Origin: an uncultured Verrucomicrobiae bacterium
Lineage (GTDB): Bacteria > Verrucomicrobiota > Verrucomicrobiia > Limisphaerales > UBA11358
Assembly (NCBI GenBank): GCA_963802515.1
Contig: CAWDIX010000002.1
Span: 566,857-630,856 of the forward strand
Direction of reading: 5' to 3'
Length of the DNA: 64,000 nt
A model generated the notes under the pieces. That model worked only from the letters and a program-made list of their open reading frames with translations, was not told where the DNA came from and searched no databases. This document shows, in pieces, positions 21,953 through 63,641 of this stretch. The translations under genes and the position numbers were made by a program. The number at the start of each line of letters is the position of its first letter. Position 1 is the first letter of the stretch.

Positions 21953-22023
21953 CGTAGCGGCGTCTCCGCAGAGCACCGCACTCGAAAAAGAATTCAGCGT
22001 GGCGCTGTCGAACCGCCGCTACG
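21953..22023. repeat. palindromic element, family P2 (CGTAGCGGCG ... CGCCGCTACG)
   Basis: The arms cgtagcggcgtctccgcagagcaccgc and gtggcgctgtcgaaccgccgctacg flank an AT-rich centre. The element is related to the one at 52274-52347. Its right arm encodes the last codons and the stop of the minus-strand methyltransferase gene. Confidence 0.7.
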
Positions 22024-22998
22024 ATGCACAAGGAAAACGCCCTCCTCTTCGGATTTGGCAACCCACTGCCCGCACACTTCCAAACCGTGCCGGGCGAGGG
22101 CCACCTGAACCCGCTCCGGCGTGTAACGGTACGAAAAGAAAAGCCGGATGACTTCGCCACGCCGAAATCCAAAATCCTCGCCGTCAACCTCAATCCGGCG
22201 CGCACGGACGAAATGAAACCCCGCTGCTATGCATTTCAGGCCGCTGGTTGTGTCCGTTTCGATTTTGAAACGCAACGCGCCGTCGCCGCACTCGACGCCC
22301 AGATCGAGCAGAAAGGTCATCAGCCAGTCGCGCGTGAGCGGGTTGTCGTATTGCGGCAAGACCTTTTCCACCCCGGCGGCGTAATTTTTGGCCGGCGCCA
22401 GGTTCGCGCTGAACAACAGAAAATCCTTTGGACGAACCAGCGATGCCAGTTTCGGCAAAATCTGCTTCGGCTCAAAGTTTGGAATCATGCCGAAAAAAGT
22501 GACGATGCGTAGGGCGTGGGCCGTGACGCGGGAATCGAGGACAGCGCGCAAGTCATCCGTTGTGGCCAGGTCACAGACGAAGGGAAAACAATGCCTCTCC
22601 GGCACGACTGCCAGGGCGGTCTGCCGTGCAGTCAAAACCATCGCCGAGCTGACATCGCACGGCGTATAGAAAACTTCCCTGCCGCGCGACCGCAACGATT
22701 TCAACAGGCGCGCATCCTTTTGTCCGCCGCCACAACCGAGACCGATGACATGGACGCTCTGTTTTTTGACCCGGGCGGTAGCCGCCGCGAAACCTTTTTC
22801 ATACACCGCCTGACAATCCGCGTCATTCCGTGCCGGCGAGTAAGCCTGGTGCAGCGCCAGCCATTTTTGCGTTTGCCTGACGCTGTCGTAATGAAACTTG
22901 TGGTTCACCCGCCGCGTGCGGAGCGATTCCAGCAAATCGCGGCGAACCGCATCAGGAAACTGGCTGGGGTGAATTGTGACTGTGGCCATATCGGACAT
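21994..22998 (-). CDS. EgtD-like (Methyltransf_33-type) SAM-dependent methyltransferase
   Basis: KFHYDSVRQTQKWLAL...VIGLGCGGGQKDARLL...YTPCDVSSAMV...FFGMIPNFEP parallels the EgtD pattern as I recall it. The track start at 23013 is a GTG; the ATG at 22998 is preferred. Confidence 0.65.
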   Translation of the reverse strand: MSDMATVTIHPSQFPDAVRRDLLESLRTRRVNHKFHYDSVRQTQKWLALHQAYSPARNDADCQAVYEKGFAAATARVKKQSVHVIGLGCGGGQKDARLLKSLRSRGREVFYTPCDVSSAMVLTARQTALAVVPERHCFPFVCDLATTDDLRAVLDSRVTAHALRIVTFFGMIPNFEPKQILPKLASLVRPKDFLLFSANLAPAKNYAAGVEKVLPQYDNPLTRDWLMTFLLDLGVECGDGALRFKIETDTTSGLKCIAAGFHFVRARRIEVDGEDFGFRRGEVIRLFFSYRYTPERVQVALARHGLEVCGQWVAKSEEEGVFLVHRSGGSTAPR

Positions 22999-23021
22999 TG
23001 GGAGTTTCCTCACGGTGGCGA

Positions 23022-25187: not shown

Positions 25188-25206
25188 AGGTAACAATGCC
25201 TTTTGA

Positions 25207-25255
25207 GTTTGGAGTTCCGCGTTTACGCGGTCCGCCTGAAGGCGGGACTCCAAAC
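25207..25255. repeat. palindromic element, family P1 (outer stem GTTTGGAGT/ACTCCAAAC enclosing two GC hairpins)
   Basis: gtttggagt-tccgcgtttacgcgg-tccgcctgaaggcggg-actccaaac. It is intergenic, inside the oxidase gene string. Confidence 0.85.
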
Positions 25256-25262
25256 TGTCATT

Positions 25263-29478: not shown

Positions 29479-30582
29479 TCATTTGTTTGCGGCCAAAGCC
29501 GGTTGGACTCCGAATGCGCCGGGGATGGCGCCGGCAGGTTCAGTGCGGGACAGCGGTTCAAAACGATGGCAAGCCGCGGCACACCACAAGGCGCCAGTCA
29601 CGAGCGAAAGCGCCCCGACCAGCACATGCGCCGTCGCCACGTCGGCGGCCTTGTTCGACCAGATGGTCCACGCGCCAAGCGCAATTTGCCCTGCAATCAA
29701 CGCCAGCCAAAACACCGCCAGCCGTGTCAAAGGGTCCTTTTTACCAAGGCGCCGCCAGGCCCGCTGCGCACTCACGGCGACACCGATAAAAATGGCCACG
29801 GCGACCATCCGGTGCATCATTTGCAGAACGATTTGAAAGGCCGTAATCGGGTTTTCGGAAATGACCTCGATGCGGTCGGCGTTATAGCGCGCCACGGCAG
29901 CCGCGCTCGTGTCCGGCCAGATTTTTCCGTACGCCGCCGGAAAATCGGGAATCGCCAGGCCGGCGTGCTGGTGCCGCATCGTTGCGCCCAGAATCAGTTG
30001 CCCGAAAATCAAAATGGTGGTGAACAGAACGAGTCCGCGCAACAGAGTGCCGGCCTCCGGCACAGCGTGTTGGCCCGCCAAATTCTCTTCGCGCCGCGCC
30101 GGAGGCTGGCGCTCCATTTTATGCCACCAACGGCTGGTGAACAGGCCCAGGCCACAAATCAAAACAAAGAACAATTGCGCGAGCGCACCGTGAACGATGC
30201 CGAGTTTGTCCATGTCGAGCGTCACGCGCAGCCCTCCGAGCACACCCTGGAGCGCGACCAGCACAAACGCGAGCACGCCGAGCCAGCGCATCCAGCGGCG
30301 CGCATCCTTGCGCCAAAGCCAGACGGCGAGCACGGTTGTTAAAAGACCGATGCCGGAAGCGAGCAGACGATGGGTGTGTTCGTAAAAAATGCCGCCCACC
30401 CATTTTGAAACCGGAAACAGAAACATATTGTAACCGTAGGTGTTCGGCCAGTCGGGCACCGACATGCCGGCTTCGTGGCTGGTCACCATGCCGCCCGAGC
30501 CGAGCAGCAAAAACGTCGCGGCGGCGGTCACCACGATAAACCGGTGCAGCCACGAATTGTCATTTTGCGCATTGGCGTTCAT
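29479..30582 (-). CDS. ctaA: heme A synthase (COX15/CtaA family)
   Basis: The ATG at 30582 gives MNANAQ...GGMVTSHEAGMSVPDWPNTYGYNMF...EHTHRLLAS...MMHRMVAVAI. The protein is polytopic. Confidence 0.85.
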   Translation of the reverse strand: MNANAQNDNSWLHRFIVVTAAATFLLLGSGGMVTSHEAGMSVPDWPNTYGYNMFLFPVSKWVGGIFYEHTHRLLASGIGLLTTVLAVWLWRKDARRWMRWLGVLAFVLVALQGVLGGLRVTLDMDKLGIVHGALAQLFFVLICGLGLFTSRWWHKMERQPPARREENLAGQHAVPEAGTLLRGLVLFTTILIFGQLILGATMRHQHAGLAIPDFPAAYGKIWPDTSAAAVARYNADRIEVISENPITAFQIVLQMMHRMVAVAIFIGVAVSAQRAWRRLGKKDPLTRLAVFWLALIAGQIALGAWTIWSNKAADVATAHVLVGALSLVTGALWCAAACHRFEPLSRTEPAGAIPGAFGVQPALAANK

Positions 30583-30644
30583 ATTAAATATTCCGCAGCG
30601 TCGAGCCGGCGGCTCGATGTCGGCGCACAACCCCGGCGCTGCAA

Positions 30645-52002: not shown

Positions 52003-53922
52003 TCAACTACCGCTCGGTAACGCCGCTGCCTTGATTGCGGTCAGTTCTTCCCATCGGGCATAGAGCTTTGCGAGGGTTTCCTTTGCGGCGGCGAGGTCGG
52101 CCACCAGCTGGTTCGTTTGCGTGGCGTGGGTGCGATGAAAATCCGGCGAGGCGAACAGCCCTTCGATACGGGCAATTTCCGCGTCCACAGCGTGTATCTT
52201 CGCTTCCATCCCTTCCAGTTCGCGCGCTTCCGCGAATGAGAGTTTGCGGGGCTTTGCGGGTTTCGCTGCCTTCGTAGCGGCGACTCGGGAGAGCGCCGCT
52301 GTTTTATTAAAAGCTAAGATGGCGGCGCTCTGCCGAGTCGCCGCTACAACCTGCCGTTGTTTTTTCTCCAGGTAATAATCGTAGTCGCCGACGCTGTGGT
52401 GGATTTTTTCGTCGCCTTCAAAAGCGAGGATGTCGGTGCAAACGCGGTTGAGAAAATAGCGGTCGTGGCTTACGACGCACACCACGCCGGGGAACGCAAT
52501 CAGCGCCTCCTCCAGCACCCGCAACGTCGGCAGGTCCAAATCATTCGTCGGCTCGTCGAGGATGAGGAAGTTGCCGCCGTTTTTCAGGATGCGCGCGAGC
52601 AACAGCCGGCTGCGTTCCCCGCCGGAAATCTTTTTGACCTGCGTCAGGATGCGTTCGTCAGCGAACAGGAAGCGCTTCAGGTACGAGCGCACGGAGATTT
52701 TCGATTCGCCCCAGATGACAAACTCCGTGCCGTCGGACGCCTCTTCCAGCACCGTGTGCTCGTCGTTCAATTGCAGGCGGCTCTGGTCCACGTAATTGAA
52801 CTTCGTAAGCTGGCCAGCCTTCACCGTGCCTTCCGTCGGTGCGACCTCGCCGAGGATGATTTTCAACAGCGTGGTTTTGCCCAGGCCGTTCCGGCCGCAG
52901 ACGCCCACGCGTTTGCCATTCTCGAAGGTGAAATTGAATCCGCGAAACAAGGTGCGCCCGCCGAGGTCCATGCCCACATTGGCCAACTCCACCGTGCGAT
53001 TGCCCAGTTGCGGCGGCGGCGGGATGACCAGTTCCATGTCCTCCTCAATCACCGGCCCGTCCTGGGCCGCGGTTTCGTAGTAACGCTCGAAACGGTCCTT
53101 CTGTTTGCTGCGTTGGGCGCGCGGGCCTTGCCGCACCCACGCCAGTTCCTTTTTCAGAAACATCTGCCGCTTGTGCTCGATCACCGCGTCAGCGGCCTGG
53201 CGCTCGGCCTTGTCGAGCAGGTAATCGGTGTAATTGCCGTCGTGCCACCAGAACCGTCCGTCGCTCAACTCGACGATGCGGCCCACCACGCGGTCGAGGA
53301 AATAGCGGTCGTGCGTCACCACGATGAACGTGCCGCTGAAGTTTTCGAGAAATTCCGCGACCCACTCGATGGATTCCGGGTCGAGATGGTTCGTCGGCTC
53401 GTCGAGCATCAGGCAATCCGGGCGCGAAACAATGGCCCGCGCCAGCGCCACGCGCCGTTTCTCGCCGCCGGAAAGCGTTTCGATGCGGCGCGCGCCGTCC
53501 GGACAATTCAGGTGCGAGAGCGCCGTCTCGATGCGTTGATCGAGCGTCCAGCCTTCGAGCGATTGGATGCGATGTTCCAGTTCCTCATGCCGTTTCGAGT
53601 CATGCGGCAACGCTTCAAATTCCGCGATGAGGTCGAGCACGTGTTTCGCTCCTGCGCGCACATTGCCGCGCACGTCGAGCGCCGGATCGAGCGTGAAATC
53701 CTGCGAAAGATAACTCACCACCAGGTCCCGCCGCCGCGTGACGGTGCCCGAATCCGGCGATTGCAGTCCGGCGAGGATTTTCAGGAACGTCGTTTTGCCG
53801 CTGCCGTTGCGACCGACCAGCCCGATGCGTTGTCCCTCGTCAACCGCAAGTGTCGCACGGTCGAGCACCACGCGGTCGCCGTAGCGCACGGTCAATTCGG
53901 TGGCGTTGAGGATGGTGGACAT
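52003..53922 (-). CDS. ABC-F family ATPase (Uup/EttA-like, two ABC domains, C-terminal coiled coil)
   Basis: The ATG at 53922 is followed by GLVGRNGSGKTTFLK and GVCGRNGLGKTTLLK (Walker A twice), and LSGGEKRRVALA and ISGGERSRLLLA (signatures). There is no TM domain. Confidence 0.92.
   Translation of the reverse strand: MSTILNATELTVRYGDRVVLDRATLAVDEGQRIGLVGRNGSGKTTFLKILAGLQSPDSGTVTRRRDLVVSYLSQDFTLDPALDVRGNVRAGAKHVLDLIAEFEALPHDSKRHEELEHRIQSLEGWTLDQRIETALSHLNCPDGARRIETLSGGEKRRVALARAIVSRPDCLMLDEPTNHLDPESIEWVAEFLENFSGTFIVVTHDRYFLDRVVGRIVELSDGRFWWHDGNYTDYLLDKAERQAADAVIEHKRQMFLKKELAWVRQGPRAQRSKQKDRFERYYETAAQDGPVIEEDMELVIPPPPQLGNRTVELANVGMDLGGRTLFRGFNFTFENGKRVGVCGRNGLGKTTLLKIILGEVAPTEGTVKAGQLTKFNYVDQSRLQLNDEHTVLEEASDGTEFVIWGESKISVRSYLKRFLFADERILTQVKKISGGERSRLLLARILKNGGNFLILDEPTNDLDLPTLRVLEEALIAFPGVVCVVSHDRYFLNRVCTDILAFEGDEKIHHSVGDYDYYLEKKQRQVVAATRQSAAILAFNKTAALSRVAATKAAKPAKPRKLSFAEARELEGMEAKIHAVDAEIARIEGLFASPDFHRTHATQTNQLVADLAAAKETLAKLYARWEELTAIKAAALPSGS
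52274..52347. repeat. 26-bp-arm palindromic element (family P2) inside the ABC-F coding sequence
   Basis: gtagcggcgactcgggagagcgccgc - 22-nt AT-rich loop - gcggcgctctgccgagtcgccgctac (one mismatch between arms). On the minus strand it is translated in frame as ...VVAATRQSAAILAFNKTAALSRVAAT... Confidence 0.85.
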
Positions 53923-58948: not shown

Positions 58949-60613
58949 TCATTCCCGCGCCGTCTGCACCGGCAGCGCGGAGAGCGGCACGCGGCCGTTG
59001 GTTTTGGTGAAATATTCCGCCGACCATTCGTCGGCAAACAGCACGACGGGATTTTTGCCGGTGTCGTAGGCGACCCGCGCACCGGTCGGCAGCGACAGGG
59101 CGTCGAGATCATCTTCCTTCATGTCCACCGGCAGCCAGCGGACGACGGTCCACGGGGCGGATTCGAGGCGCGAGACCGCACCGTATTCGTGTTCGAGCCG
59201 GAATTGCACCACCTCGAACTGCAACGGGCCGACGGCGGCGAGCAAAGGCGTTTTGACCGACGAATTGCGAAGGTAAAGTGCCTGAATAACTCCTTCCTGC
59301 ATCAACTGGTCCAGGCCCTGGCGGAATTGCTTGAACTTCGCCGTGTTCGGATTGTGCAGATAGCTGAAGGCCTCGGGCGTGAAGCGCGGGATTTCCTTGT
59401 AAACGATTTTGGGATCGGTCGTGAGGGTATCGCCGATGCCGAAACTGTCGTGACCGACGAGGCCGATGACGTCGCCCGGCCAGGCTTCGTCCACGATTTC
59501 GCGTTCATTGCCGAAAAGTTTGTGGGAGCTGGAGAGGCGCACCTTCTTTTCCGACCGCGAATGATGCACCGTCATGTCGCGTTCGAACTTGCCCGAACAG
59601 ACACGAACGAACGCGATGCGGTCGCGATGCCGCGGGTCCATGTTCGCCTGAATCTTGAAGATGAAACCGGAGAAGGCGGGGTGTTCGGGACTGATAAAGT
59701 TTGGAGTTCCGCCTTCAGGCGGATTTGAATTTGCACGTTTTCCATTCGCCGGGCCGCCTGAAGGCGGAACTCTGAACCTGCCGCGCGGTCCGGGCGCGTG
59801 TTTCAGGAACCCGTCGAGCAAAAGCTGGACGCCGAAATTATTGAGGGCGCTGCCGAAGAACACCGGGGTCGTTCTTTCCGCAAGCACGGCGACGTCATCC
59901 CACTCGTGCCCGGCGTGTTCGAGCATTTCAAGTTCCTCGACCGTCCGGCGAAAGGTTTCGTCATCAAGTTGACCGCGCACGGCGGGATCATCCAGTCCGC
60001 CGACCTGCACCGGGGCGCGATACTGGCCGCCCGTCGTGCGTTCGAAGAGATGCATCAGCTTCGTCTGCCGGTCATACACGCCCTGAAACTCGAAGCCGTT
60101 GCCGATGGGCCAGTTCACCGGGAAAGCGCCGATGCCGAGCACGCGTTCCAGTTCATCGAGTAGCGCGAGCGGGTCCTTCATCGGGCGGTCGCACTTGTTC
60201 ATGAAGGTGAAGATGGGCACGCCGCGCTGGCGGCAAACCTCGAACAGTTTGCGTGTCTGCGGTTCGATGCCCTTGGCCGAGTCAATCACCATCACCACCG
60301 AATCCACGGCGGTGAGCACCCGGTAGGTGTCTTCGGAAAAATCCTTGTGGCCCGGCGTGTCGAGCAGGTTGAGACGGTAACCGCTGTAATCGAATTGAAG
60401 GACCGTGGAACTGATCGAAATGCCGCGTTTTTTCTCCAGCTCCATCCAGTCGGACGTGGTGGCGGCCTGGTTCCGGCGCGCGGTGACCGAGCCGGCGAGC
60501 TGCACCGCGCCGCCATACAGCAACAGCTTTTCCGTCAGCGTGGTTTTGCCCGCGTCCGGATGCGAGATGATGGCGAACGTGCGCCGTTTCTGGATTTCTT
60601 CCGCAATGCTCAC
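58949..60613 (-). CDS. prfC: peptide chain release factor 3 (carrying an in-frame repeat insertion)
   Basis: RRTFAIISHPDAGKTTLTEKLL...DTPGHKDFSEDT...FMNKCDR...FIFKIQANMDPRHRDRIAFVRV. The GTG at 60613 is preferred over the TTG at 60652. Confidence 0.92.
   Translation of the reverse strand: MSIAEEIQKRRTFAIISHPDAGKTTLTEKLLLYGGAVQLAGSVTARRNQAATTSDWMELEKKRGISISSTVLQFDYSGYRLNLLDTPGHKDFSEDTYRVLTAVDSVVMVIDSAKGIEPQTRKLFEVCRQRGVPIFTFMNKCDRPMKDPLALLDELERVLGIGAFPVNWPIGNGFEFQGVYDRQTKLMHLFERTTGGQYRAPVQVGGLDDPAVRGQLDDETFRRTVEELEMLEHAGHEWDDVAVLAERTTPVFFGSALNNFGVQLLLDGFLKHAPGPRGRFRVPPSGGPANGKRANSNPPEGGTPNFISPEHPAFSGFIFKIQANMDPRHRDRIAFVRVCSGKFERDMTVHHSRSEKKVRLSSSHKLFGNEREIVDEAWPGDVIGLVGHDSFGIGDTLTTDPKIVYKEIPRFTPEAFSYLHNPNTAKFKQFRQGLDQLMQEGVIQALYLRNSSVKTPLLAAVGPLQFEVVQFRLEHEYGAVSRLESAPWTVVRWLPVDMKEDDLDALSLPTGARVAYDTGKNPVVLFADEWSAEYFTKTNGRVPLSALPVQTARE
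59699..59777. repeat. family P1 palindromic element inside prfC
   Basis: gtttggagttccgccttcaggcgga ... gccgcctgaaggcggaactctgaac. On the minus strand it is translated in frame as ...[27 protein letters not shown]... Confidence 0.85.
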
Positions 60614-60766
60614 AAGAGCCGTAAACGATAACAGAGAATCAGGCCGGAACAAGGTTTGGATTTTGGCGATCGAACTTCATTTTAACCACGGATAACACGG
60701 ATGAACGCGGATTCAGTTCAACGAAACATGCAATTATAGCGGTTTAACTAAAACCGTGGCCGTCGG

Positions 60767-60840
60767 AGGAGCGCGGGCTTCAGCCCGCTTCGACGTGAAT
60801 TTCATGGAGGACAATGAAGCGGCGTGAACGCCGCGCTCCT
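60767..60840. repeat. intergenic palindromic element (outer stem AGGAGCGCG/CGCGCTCCT, two inner GC hairpins)
   Basis: aggagcgcgggcttcagcccgc ... gcggcgtgaacgccgcgctcct. It has the same two-hairpin-in-a-stem architecture as family P1. Confidence 0.75.
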
Positions 60841-60989: not shown

Positions 60990-63641
60990 TTATATCTTCT
61001 CAAACACCAATTCGTCCCCTTTGGCGTTGACCTTGATTTTGTCCCCCGGCTTGAACTCGCCTTCGAGCAGGCGCATCGAAAGCGGGTTGAGGATTCGTTC
61101 CTGCACGGCGCGTTTGAGCGGGCGGGCGCCGAATTGCGGGTCGTATCCTTCCTTCGCCAGCAGCTTCTTCGCCGCGGCGTCCACGTCGAGCGTGAGATTT
61201 TGTTGCGCCAGCCGTTCCTTGAGTCTTCCCAGTTGGATGTCCACGATGCGCTCAATTTCGCTTTCGTCGAGGCTCTGGAAAATGATGACGTCGTCCACCC
61301 GGTTCAGGAATTCCGGCCGGAAATGCCGTTTCAACTCGGCCATAATGCGGTCGTGCAATTCGTTCGGAGTTCCGCCTTTAGGCGGTTTGTCCGAACCACG
61401 ACGACCCGATTCCGCCTGAAGGCGGGACTCCAAACTTTCTTGAATCAGGTGCGAGCCGAGGTTGCTGGTCATGATGACGATGGTGTTCTTGAAATCCACC
61501 GTCCTCCCCTGCCCGTCGGTGAGCCGGCCATCATCCAACACCTGCAACAGCACGTTGAACACGTCGTGATGCGCCTTCTCAATTTCGTCGAACAACACCA
61601 CCGAATATGGCCGGCGGCGCACCGCCTCGCTCAACTGCCCGCCTTCCTCGTAACCGACATAGCCCGGCGGCGCGCCAATGAGCCGCGCGACGGTGTGTTT
61701 CTCCATGTATTCGCTCATATCAATGCGAATCATCGCGTTTTCGTCGTCGAACAAAAATTCCGCCAGCGCGCGGGCGGTCTCGGTCTTGCCGACGCCGGTC
61801 GGGCCGAGAAAGATGAACGAGCCGATGGGCCGGTTCGGGTCCTGCAATCCGCTCCGCGCCCGGCGCACGGCGTCGGACACGGCCTTGATGGCTTCTTTCT
61901 GGCCGACCACGCGCTGCGCGAGCCGTTCCTCCATCTTCACCAGCTTTTGCCGCTCGCCCTCGAGCATCCGCGAAACCGGGATGTGCGTCCATGACGCCAC
62001 AACCTTGGCAATATCCTCGTCCGTGACTTCCTGGCGGAGCAAGCTGCTCCTGCCACCTGCAGGCGAGACGCCTGCACCACTACTTTCCAGCTTCACGAGT
62101 TTCTTTTCCAAATCGGGAATCTTGCCGTATTGAATTTCCGCCGACTTCGTCAAATCGCCTTTGCGTTGCGCCTGTTCCAGTTCGAGTTTTGCCTGCTCGA
62201 GTTGCGATTGCACCACACTCACGGCATTGACGGCGGCCTTTTCATTCTGCCATTGGGCGGTGAGCGCCTTGGACTTGTCCTTGAGATTGGCAGTTTCCTT
62301 GTCAATCAGCTTGAGCCGTTCCTTGCTGGCAGCGTCCTTTTCCTTGGCCAACGACGTGCGCTCGATTTCCAATTGCAAAATCTGCCGGTCCAACTGGTCG
62401 AGTTCAGTCGGCTTGGAATCCAGTTCCATTTTGATGCGCGACGCCGCCTCGTCCACGAGGTCAATCGCCTTGTCCGGGAGGAACCGGTCGGTGATGTAGC
62501 GATGGGACAACATCGCCGCCGCCACGAGCGCCGAATCCTGAATCCGCACGCCATGATGAACTTCGTATCGCTCCTTCAACCCGCGTAAAATTGCGATGGT
62601 CGCTTCGACGGTCGGCTCCTCCACCTTGACCGGCTGGAAACGGCGTTCGAGCGCCGGGTCTTTCTCGATGTGCTTGCGGTATTCGTCGAGCGTCGTCGCG
62701 CCCACGCAACGGAGTTCGCCGCGCGCGAGTTGCGGCTTCATGATATTGGCCGCGTCCGTCGCGCCTTCCGCCGCGCCAGCACCGACGATGGTGTGCAACT
62801 CGTCAATGAACAGAATGATTTTGCCTTCGCTGGCGACGATTTCCTTGAGAAACGCCTTGAGCCGGTCCTCGAATTCACCGCGATATTTGGCGCCGGCAAT
62901 CATCGCGCTCAGATCCATTGCCACCAGCCGCTTGTTCTTGAGCGATTCCGGCACGTCACCGCTCACGATGCGCCGCGCCAGGCCTTCGGCGATGGCGGTC
63001 TTGCCCACGCCGGGTTCACCGATCAACACCGGATTGTTTTTCGTGCGGCGCGTAAGCACCTGCATGACGCGGCGGATTTCCTCGTCACGGCCGATGACCG
63101 GGTCAATCTTGCCCTGCCGCGCCAGCGCGGTAAGGTCGCGGCCGTATTTGTCGAGCGCCTGAAATTTGGCTTCGGGATTTTCGTCGGTCACGCGCTGGTT
63201 GCCGCGCAATTCGGCGAGCGCCTTCAGTACGGCATCACGTTTCAAGCCGTGCCTGGCGAAAATCTTTTTCAGCGCCGAACCGCCGCCGTCCAGCAGGCCA
63301 AGCAGCAGATGTTCAGTACTGACATAATCGTCCTTGAGCTTGGTCGCCTCGGATTGCGCGGCATCGAGCGCCTTCTGCAAATCGCGGCCGGCGTAGGCAT
63401 CGCCGGCGCCCTGGACCTTGTGCCGGCGGGCGAGTTCGGCTTCCAACTCCGGTTTCAGCTTCGCGACCGGCACGCCGATGCGTTCGAGCAGGTCGGGGAT
63501 GAGGCTCTCGGTCTGCCCGATGAGCGCGAGCGCGAGATGTTCGCCGTCGAGTTCCTGATGCGAATGCTCGCGGGCGATGCGTTGCGCCTCCTGCAAGGCT
63601 TCCTGTGATTTGAGAGTAAGTTTCTCCGGTTGCATAACCAT
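60990..63641 (-). CDS. clpB: ATP-dependent chaperone/disaggregase ClpB (carrying an in-frame repeat insertion)
   Basis: [15 protein letters not shown] and [15 protein letters not shown] (two Walker A motifs), coiled-coil middle domain, [20 protein letters not shown]. The second ATG at 63635 may be the true start. Confidence 0.95.
61366..61435. repeat. family P1 palindromic element inside clpB
   Basis: ggagttccgcctttaggcgg - tttgtccgaaccacgacgacccgatt - ccgcctgaaggcgggactccaaac. On the minus strand it is translated in frame as ...[23 protein letters not shown]... Confidence 0.85.

Follow-up and report, generated by a model that had tools for sequence, protein, structure and literature searches.

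A hairpin doublet, probably of the repetitive extragenic palindrome type, lies in frame within the release factor 3 gene of an uncultured Verrucomicrobiae bacterium

How a strong DNA palindrome comes to be read as protein in the middle of a translation factor is the question raised by prfC, the gene for release factor 3 (RF3), in an uncultured Verrucomicrobiae bacterium. The window analysed in this work is a stretch of 64,000 nucleotides from that genome (GenBank assembly GCA_963802515.1, contig CAWDIX010000002.1, positions 566,857 to 630,856). An initial annotation, made from the sequence alone, had recognised a palindromic repeat inside prfC and a second copy in an intergenic region, and had taken it for a selfish, hairpin-forming repeat that survives within an essential gene by being translated as a surface loop, in the manner of the Rickettsia palindromic elements (RPEs). 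This interpretation holds in that a dispersed family of hairpins is read through in frame, but doublets of repetitive extragenic palindromes (REPs) fit the element better than RPEs do. On comparison with related sequences, the prfC feature is very probably a REP-type doublet, akin to the paired, inverted REPs known as REPINs, of a family without the GTAG head, lodged in a permissive RF3 linker that acts as a recurrent nest.

The sequence, palindromic structure and translation originally given for the element were exact as quoted, and the open reading frame (ORF) that contains it is indeed uninterrupted. Its 567-aa minus-strand product carries the full set of RF3 domains in Pfam (GTP_EFTU at residues 22-287, EF-G_D2 at 327-412 and RF3_C at 418-548), matches solved RF3 chains in PDB at E-values of 1e-130 to 1e-143, and is 100% identical to a database protein (P0001) that starts 13 codons later and has 554 aa. 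The insert occupies residues 293-319 and falls between the Pfam G domain and domain II, a placement taken from the alignment to solved RF3 and the Pfam borders, as an AlphaFold2 model made with 30 close homologues was unusable (mean predicted local distance difference test score, 42). When aligned by HMMER with the solved chains, the window protein differs by a single clean gap of 21 residues at VPPSGG...PPEGG, which agrees with the statement in the initial annotation that the E. coli linker is about 20 residues shorter. An inverted-repeat search delimits two arms of 24 nt each, 92% complementary and 31 nt apart, and as RNA the element has a predicted folding energy of -44.2 kcal/mol (z = -4.6 against shuffles). 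The junction peptide predicted for the translated insert is FRVPPSGGPANGK. Neither of the element copies tested against Rfam had a match, at the gathering threshold or at E <= 1.

The repeated unit, here called family A, is an arm of ~24 nt in which the head GTTYGGAGTYCC is followed by a small hairpin with a 5-bp stem and a 4-nt loop (CCGCC-TTCA-GGCGG). The layout is constant throughout: GTTYGGAGTYCC comes with its small hairpin, and after a spacer of variable length a second small hairpin leads into GGRACTCCRAAC, with the arms inverted and the heads facing outward. A 20-nt core of the arm, allowing up to three mismatches, has six matches in the window, where shuffling predicts 0.01, and these belong to three elements: the prfC doublet, the intergenic copy, which is real, and a third in clpB that had escaped the initial annotation. 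The clpB doublet forms residues ~735-762 of the protein, within the AAA_2 envelope at 604-784, and reaches -42.1 kcal/mol as RNA (z -4.5). The spacers of the three elements, of 31, 26 and 1 nt, are unrelated to one another, and the left arm is read as VPPSGG in prfC and as SRLQAE (SLESRLQAE) in clpB, that is, in different frames. Hence the thing repeated is a nucleic-acid unit, rather than a peptide module.

Nor is the repeat unique to prfC: besides the two other sites in the window, its arms lie at at least 119 loci elsewhere. These stretches were listed by a scan with a 20-mer of the arm in one genome per species, and 126 elements from them were analysed. By the labels recorded for the metagenome-assembled genomes (MAGs), they come from Verrucomicrobiota, Planctomycetota, Acidobacteriota (including Blastocatellia, Pyrinomonadaceae and Chloracidobacterium), Lentisphaerota, Sumerlaeota, Desulfobacterota and others, with exact 20-nt matches, and several loci can occur in one MAG (for example L040/L042/L068/L104 and L008/L031/L045). 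Nineteen predicted viral contigs (L213-L231) also contain the arm. A recognisable partner arm is present in 75 of the 126 elements, the paired elements measuring 32-117 nt head-to-tail, with spacers of ~0 to ~60 nt that are unrelated between copies. The small hairpin of the partner is fully paired in 69 of 79 cases, its loop T[GA]AA is conserved, and the stem exists in six variants changed on both sides (CCGCC/GGCGG, CCGCG/CGCGG, CCGGC/GCCGG, CCGCA/TGCGG, CCAGC/GCTGG and CCTGC/GCAGG). Copies were counted as inside a gene if flanked by at least 80 open codons on each side, with Pfam checks; stop-to-stop ORFs were dropped as a proxy for coding sequence, as they scored 90% of the DNA as coding. 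In-frame copies in other phyla lie in Ser/Thr kinases, an Akkermansia aldehyde dehydrogenase and a GDE_N protein. The frames that yield GVPPSGG and PPEGGTP recur in other genomes, and the TGA present in one reverse-arm frame is by itself enough to skew which frames are observed. Tandem arrangements occur on two of the viral contigs, with four arms head-to-tail at a 29-nt period in L217:3850-3956 and two doublets in L222:611-720.

That the RF3 linker acts as a recurrent nest is suggested by its contents in 120 RF3 homologues of 84-100% identity. The linker holds an insert of type A, of type B (..VGQASRLS..GDRRDACPTF), of type C (..AAEVTRR..PPPHVGGY), of type A with a further element nested in it, a decayed insert or the short NNGETPDF, or else it is empty, as in 18 of the 120. 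In the DNA of relatives each type of insert proved to be a palindromic doublet. The orthologous type-A copy of L200 forms a perfect 26-bp hairpin, with a spacer homologous to that of the window, and the same type A is found in L201; the linkers of L203 and L204 have GTAGGACAGGCG and GTAGCCGCCGAGG doublets, respectively; and in L205 a GGAGCGCGG doublet is nested between the arms of an A doublet. Heads of the GTAG type (GTAGGACAGG and GTAGCCGCC) stand at the same site in relatives, and the 68%-identical RF3 of L133 has yet another palindromic family in its linker (z -3.8). At least four different palindromic families hold this linker across the relatives, and types B and C also turn up at the ClpB sites of other relatives. 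The inserts are very different, at 5-44 residues, yet the reading frame is intact in every RF3 homologue. Loss may be visible as well: in L202 (L202:61-1668) the linker reads NNGETPDF, with only a terminal type-A tail, GAAACTCCGGAC, left, and to judge from its sequence looks like the footprint of an in-frame deletion between short GGC repeats. A metagenome scan with RF3 gave mostly empty or distant orthologues among the matches listed.

The nearest empty allele is that of L207, in which RF3 is 94.4% identical, the adjacency of clpB and prfC is kept and the linker reads PRVMAGVS; the linker of L121 is likewise empty at the DNA level. Empty orthologues read ...AP[PA]PK[PS]R-VMGGIE-ISPEHP..., and the segment comprises 43 aa in them vs 64 aa in the window, with 27 insert residues standing in place of six ancestral, VMGGIE-like ones for a net gain of 21. 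L207, empty in RF3, has the same clpB element as the window. In a neighbour-joining tree of RF3 with the insert masked, the internal branches are 0.001-0.008 long and the insert types are interleaved. The site may have been colonised once, long ago, with turnover since, as the nested intermediate and the GP[KR]GR flank common to the occupied alleles would favour, or it may have seen repeated insertions or allele exchange. The window, L200 and L207 also group differently by gene. Their RF3 proteins, two with the insert (window and L200) and one empty (L207), are mutually equidistant at 94.2-94.7% aa identity; ClpB pairs the window with L207 (93%) rather than L200 (88%), and L200 ClpB has another element family at the site of the window clpB doublet. 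This grouping reflects either gene-tree incongruence or allele exchange.

What keeps such elements recognisable is best seen in clpB, in a codon alignment of four orthologues (window, L207, L208 and L209). Only 1 of 51 columns is variable in the arms, and 1 of 17 third positions, vs 26% of columns and 54% of third positions outside the element (Fisher 6e-6 for all columns and 7e-5 for third positions), and the 8-codon spacer between the arms is hypervariable, at 17 of 24 columns. The mismatches specific to these arms (a TTTA loop and a GTTCGG head) are common to all four orthologues; hence homogenisation from other copies by gene conversion does not explain the conservation of the arms. The proposal that the repeat survives by being read through can be kept in part, as it is read through in frame in a linker, but that of a passive passenger is incomplete, given arms conserved beyond synonymous sites in clpB. 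As far as the alignments go, the persistence of these in-frame hairpins does not look like simple neutral decay, most strongly so for the clpB copy. Relatives show the same turnover of elements at the ClpB site of the window doublet, and at a second ClpB site.

Another in-frame doublet in the window, headed by GTAG, shows a comparable persistence. It lies in an ABC-F ATPase gene (52003-53922, minus strand), between the second ABC domain and the C-terminal domain, and is present at the orthologous site in the window and five relatives with 78-92% protein identity. Across these six genomes the consensus is a 26-bp hairpin, of which four pairs are changed on both sides; these changes could also represent replacement by a sister sub-family. 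On the sense strand of the alignment, G-U mismatches are not favoured over C-A ones, and hence nothing in it points to RNA rather than DNA as the structure that matters. Taken together, the near-invariant clpB arms and the ABC-F pairing kept in six genomes suggest that the arms probably carry a cis-acting role as nucleic acid, with transposase recognition, DNA structure, and mRNA pausing or processing as the candidates.

The lineage also contains a plausible type of enzyme for moving such units. Six ClpB homologues (P0138, P0208, P0222, P0223, P0225 and P0228; 1120-1149 aa) have an in-frame insertion of ~265 aa at the second ClpB site, which is a Y1/HUH transposase (PF01797, 48 bits) with the HUH and Tyr motifs intact in all six. 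Its best NCBIfam match is NF047646, 'REP-associated tyrosine transposase' (RAYT), at 70.7 bits, below the 80-bit cut-off, and standalone homologues of up to 64% identity are annotated RayT. In the clpB of L206 (L206:11546-12377), the transposase is flanked by inverted clusters of REPs headed by GTGG or GTAG. This arrangement belongs to another REP family, not to family A. A RAYT embedded in ClpB with REPs on its flanks implies that REP-RAYT systems are active in this lineage, and able to live within reading frames. Literature searches for RAYT together with ClpB, and for the arm sequence, returned nothing relevant.

The remaining palindromes of the window are collected with the family-A copies in Table 1. 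The head of the ABC-F doublet recurs at 21954, within a doublet at the 3' end of a methyltransferase ORF, in keeping with the published observation that stop codons are often adjoined or provided by the ends of GTAG REPs (PMC3733652). Neither the arms of the COX15/CtaA doublet nor the palindrome TGCAGGCGTCTCGCCTGCA has a second copy among the sequences compared. The latter marks the second ClpB variable site, at which relatives have other palindrome-derived peptides and, in some cases, the in-frame RAYT. The doublet in the clpB-prfC spacer is missing from the spacer of L207, and its head resembles the element nested in the RF3 of L205.

Table 1. Palindromic elements of the window and the genes that contain the two in-frame family-A copies; positions are counted from the first nucleotide of the window.
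Feature	Position	Strand	Description
GTAGCGGCG-headed doublet	21953-22023		At or overlapping the 3' end of a methyltransferase ORF (21994-23013, minus)
Intergenic family-A doublet	25206-25256		Arms 1 nt apart; between two minus-strand ORFs of one gene cluster
REP-like hairpin doublet in COX15/CtaA gene (29479-30630)	30045-30114	minus	In frame, in a loop of a membrane protein
GTAG-headed REP doublet (GTAGCGGCGACTCGG...) in ABC-F ATPase gene	52274-52347	minus	In frame; peptide VVAATRQSAAILAFNKTAALSRVAAT
prfC (release factor 3)	58949-60652	minus	Uninterrupted 567-aa ORF; Pfam and solved RF3 matches
Family-A hairpin doublet in prfC	59699-59777	minus	79 nt; arms 59699-59722 and 59754-59777, spacer 59723-59753
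Hairpin doublet (GGAGCGCGG and small hairpin, twice)	60767-60840		clpB-prfC intergenic spacer
clpB	60990-63641	minus	883 aa; hosts a family-A doublet and a single small hairpin at the second variable site
Family-A doublet in clpB	61361-61437	minus	In frame; arms ~61362-61385 and 61412-61435, 26-nt spacer
Perfect small palindrome TGCAGGCGTCTCGCCTGCA, single, in clpB	62058-62076	minus	In frame; peptide GAGVSPAGG

The following course of events would account for the prfC doublet. A family-A element may have been delivered in trans by a single-strand-DNA transposase of the HUH/Y1, RAYT type, or it may have taken the place of an earlier resident hairpin, since such structures draw in more elements of their kind. 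Selection would spare only those insertions that fall in permissive linkers of essential genes, and the ribosome would then read through the doublet. A wider scheme extends this to several genes, in which permissive loops (the RF3 linker between G domain and domain II, the two ClpB sites, ABC-F and possibly CtaA) would be long-lived nests, with turnover of REPs, a RAYT as an occasional resident, arms selected as cis elements and a family A that has crossed between phyla; this full combination is possible, though on the unlikely side.

Several observations weigh against the prfC feature being a mobile doublet of the REP type. The head of family A, GTTYGGAGTYCC, is neither of the GTAG nor CGTC heads by which REPs are recognised, and the left arm of the window prfC copy has lost two outer pairs. 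No RAYT lies near family A in the window, at the at least 119 family-A loci or on the 19 viral contigs, in a search by tblastn and with a profile hidden Markov model made from the six ClpB-embedded RAYTs that matched only the query locus; and the standalone RAYT loci L210 and L212 are flanked by GTAG/GTGG REPs of their own, not by family A. Family A is sparse in this lineage, with three elements in the 64 kb of the window and no further copy in ~190 kb of flanks from close relatives. The element-free orthologues suggested for alignment in the initial annotation do exist, as in L207, but they define no clean borders, as the five residues just upstream of the insert differ too (GP[KR]GR in all occupied alleles vs P[PA]PK[PS]R in all empty ones), and neither the window nor L200 shows a target duplication (flanks ..GGCAGG / TTTATC..). 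Hence either the element did not arrive by simple cut-and-paste, or its arrival is old. The RF3 copy itself gives a comparison of just two DNA sequences, window and L200, in which 3 of 48 arm positions, 5 of 30 spacer positions and 127 of 541 third positions elsewhere differ, a result consistent with the pattern in clpB but weak. Type-A RF3 homologues keep the arm peptides well at the protein level, in a test that is partly circular because the sequences were picked by arm motifs.

The alternative with the most to recommend it is that the hairpin is a cis element selected by the host, a DNA or mRNA structure that is useful, for example, through slowing of the ribosome at a domain boundary to the benefit of folding, through mRNA processing or stability, or as a structural or protein-binding site in the DNA, with its mobile origin secondary. 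It overlaps with the REP-doublet explanation and does not exclude such an origin. Its appeal comes from the clpB arms, far more conserved than synonymous sites around a spacer that is free to change and with mismatches common to the orthologues; from the ABC-F doublet, retained by all six genomes and altered in some pairs at both partners; from the placement of the RF3 and ABC-F copies at domain junctions; and from the stability of the hairpins, at -42 to -44 kcal/mol. Yet such positions in linkers are equally expected from simple tolerance, and the RF3 insert is dispensable in close relatives, as L207 and the 18 of 120 empty homologues demonstrate. The presence at this RF3 site of various families, of decayed copies and of the footprint of a deletion, the outer pairs missing from the window RF3 copy, and the lack of a preference for G-U over C-A in the ABC-F alignment all sit poorly with a structure maintained for the host, and we therefore hold this to be possible, but on the unlikely side. 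It is improbable that the peptide matters instead, with the element adding a module to its host protein, as RPE-like or MITE-like insertions (miniature inverted-repeat transposable elements) would. The element is in frame in conserved proteins, the arm peptides are well kept in type-A RF3 homologues, and the GVPPSGG and PPEGGTP frames recur elsewhere; but the TGA in one reverse-arm frame biases the observed frames by itself, the left-arm frame differs between SLESRLQAE in clpB and VPPSGG in prfC, the arms are conserved at their third codon positions too, which selection on protein does not require, and the spacers are unrelated, with no conserved core in elements of 49-79 nt vs ~100-150 bp for RPEs (PMC10969869).

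Very little speaks for the two simplest alternatives. The linker could be an ordinary lineage-specific loop, palindromic in its DNA by chance and involving no mobile element, and RF3 linker length does vary in Verrucomicrobia, to the extent that L143, L144 and L186 have longer linkers without a significant hairpin. Chance would nevertheless have to produce the same 20-24-nt arms at two other sites in the window, where six matches stand against 0.01 expected, and at at least 119 loci in other genomes of several phyla, along with a perfect 26-bp hairpin in an orthologue (L200) and an empty allele in a 94%-identical RF3, which makes this highly implausible. Slimmer still is the chance that the segment is removed before RF3 matures, like an intron or intein. 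A strong hairpin could in principle be a signal for RNA processing, but nothing was found in favour of this: there is no intein or intron signature, Pfam gives RF3 domains alone and Rfam nothing at E <= 1. The insert is 81 nt long and the frame is kept in all RF3 homologues across inserts of 5-44 residues, which implies translation rather than excision. Hence a REP-type doublet resident in a permissive linker is the explanation with which we continue.

If the reuse of the linker by several families, the conservation of the clpB arms and the RAYT within ClpB hold up, REP and REPIN elements are not limited to extragenic space, and selection at the level of the host or of the element is possible inside essential genes. 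Under the wider scheme, the resident arms would be functional cis elements within coding sequence, such as pausing or processing hairpins at domain boundaries or landing pads for a transposase, rather than tolerated junk. These genes would offer a natural system for studying what REP hairpins do, in which the synonymous sites of the orthologous coding context form a built-in neutral yardstick. A family A shared across phyla would contradict a strictly vertical view of REPIN-RAYT systems. For annotation, the point is practical, as such inserts should not be taken for frameshifts or odd loops.

Comparison with described systems places family A closest to REPs. The RPEs named in the initial annotation are palindromic repeats of ~100-150 bp, found only in Rickettsia, which insert in frame in housekeeping genes, encode a family-specific peptide and are tolerated at the surface of the protein (Ogata et al. 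2000, summarised in PMC10969869). Family A is alike in being a palindromic repeat read through in frame in unrelated housekeeping genes, but at 49-79 nt it is smaller, its conservation is confined to the arms around unrelated spacers, and its copies do not yield the same peptide (VPPSGG in prfC, SRLQAE in clpB). MITEs, such as Correia, ERIC and BOX, are also small and non-autonomous, with terminal inverted repeats, and are sometimes in frame. They differ in having a target-site duplication and an interior derived from a parent insertion sequence (IS), whereas in family A the terminal repeats are small hairpins in their own right, around unrelated spacers; membership was rejected, as there is no target-site duplication, conserved interior or related full-length IS to be seen. 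The relatives' ClpB-embedded transposases resemble REPtrons, which are RAYT genes with their own REPs on the flanks, in that inverted clusters of GTGG/GTAG REPs surround a Y1 domain whose HUH and Tyr motifs are intact, and differ from them in that the whole arrangement sits in frame within clpB in six homologues.

The correspondence to REP dimers and REPINs (Bertels & Rainey 2011, PMC3116915; PMC3733652) is more detailed. The 24-nt arms, each a conserved head with an imperfect palindrome, fall within the ~20-40 nt of a REP unit, and two inverted units with a short, variable spacer combine into a larger hairpin, as in a REPIN. There are sub-families with complementary changes in the stem, and several families coexist in one genome. 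Bertels and colleagues describe REPINs as almost exclusively extragenic and inherited vertically with their RAYT, whereas two of the three family-A copies in the window are inside genes, and near-identical arms occur in several phyla, which is unusual for REP families, as these are described as lineage-specific. Exceptions as to location have been published for Verrucomicrobia. Di Nocera, De Gregorio & Rocco (2013, PMC3733652) reported REPs wholly inside ORFs, with the highest number of GTAG REPs in Opitutus terrae, and more than half of them dimers that encode 20-30 residues; they also described REP sub-families that differ by complementary residues in the stem, and dimers joined tail to tail whose spacers vary. 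Among the genes that they list is peptide chain release factor 3 of O. terrae, with a REP dimer at residues 304-318 (Oter_2700), which by its residue numbers lies at about the same position as the RF3 insert of the window. Hence the belief in the initial annotation that nothing of the kind had been described for this lineage was wrong at the level of the phylum. ClpB is absent from that list, and the family-A peptide motifs were not found in the supplementary files of the paper. Verrucomicrobial REP dimers read in frame, one of them in prfC, have therefore been known since 2013, and what this work adds to them is a family A spread over several phyla, the conservation of its arms in clpB around a hypervariable spacer, and a RAYT carried in frame by the ClpB of relatives.

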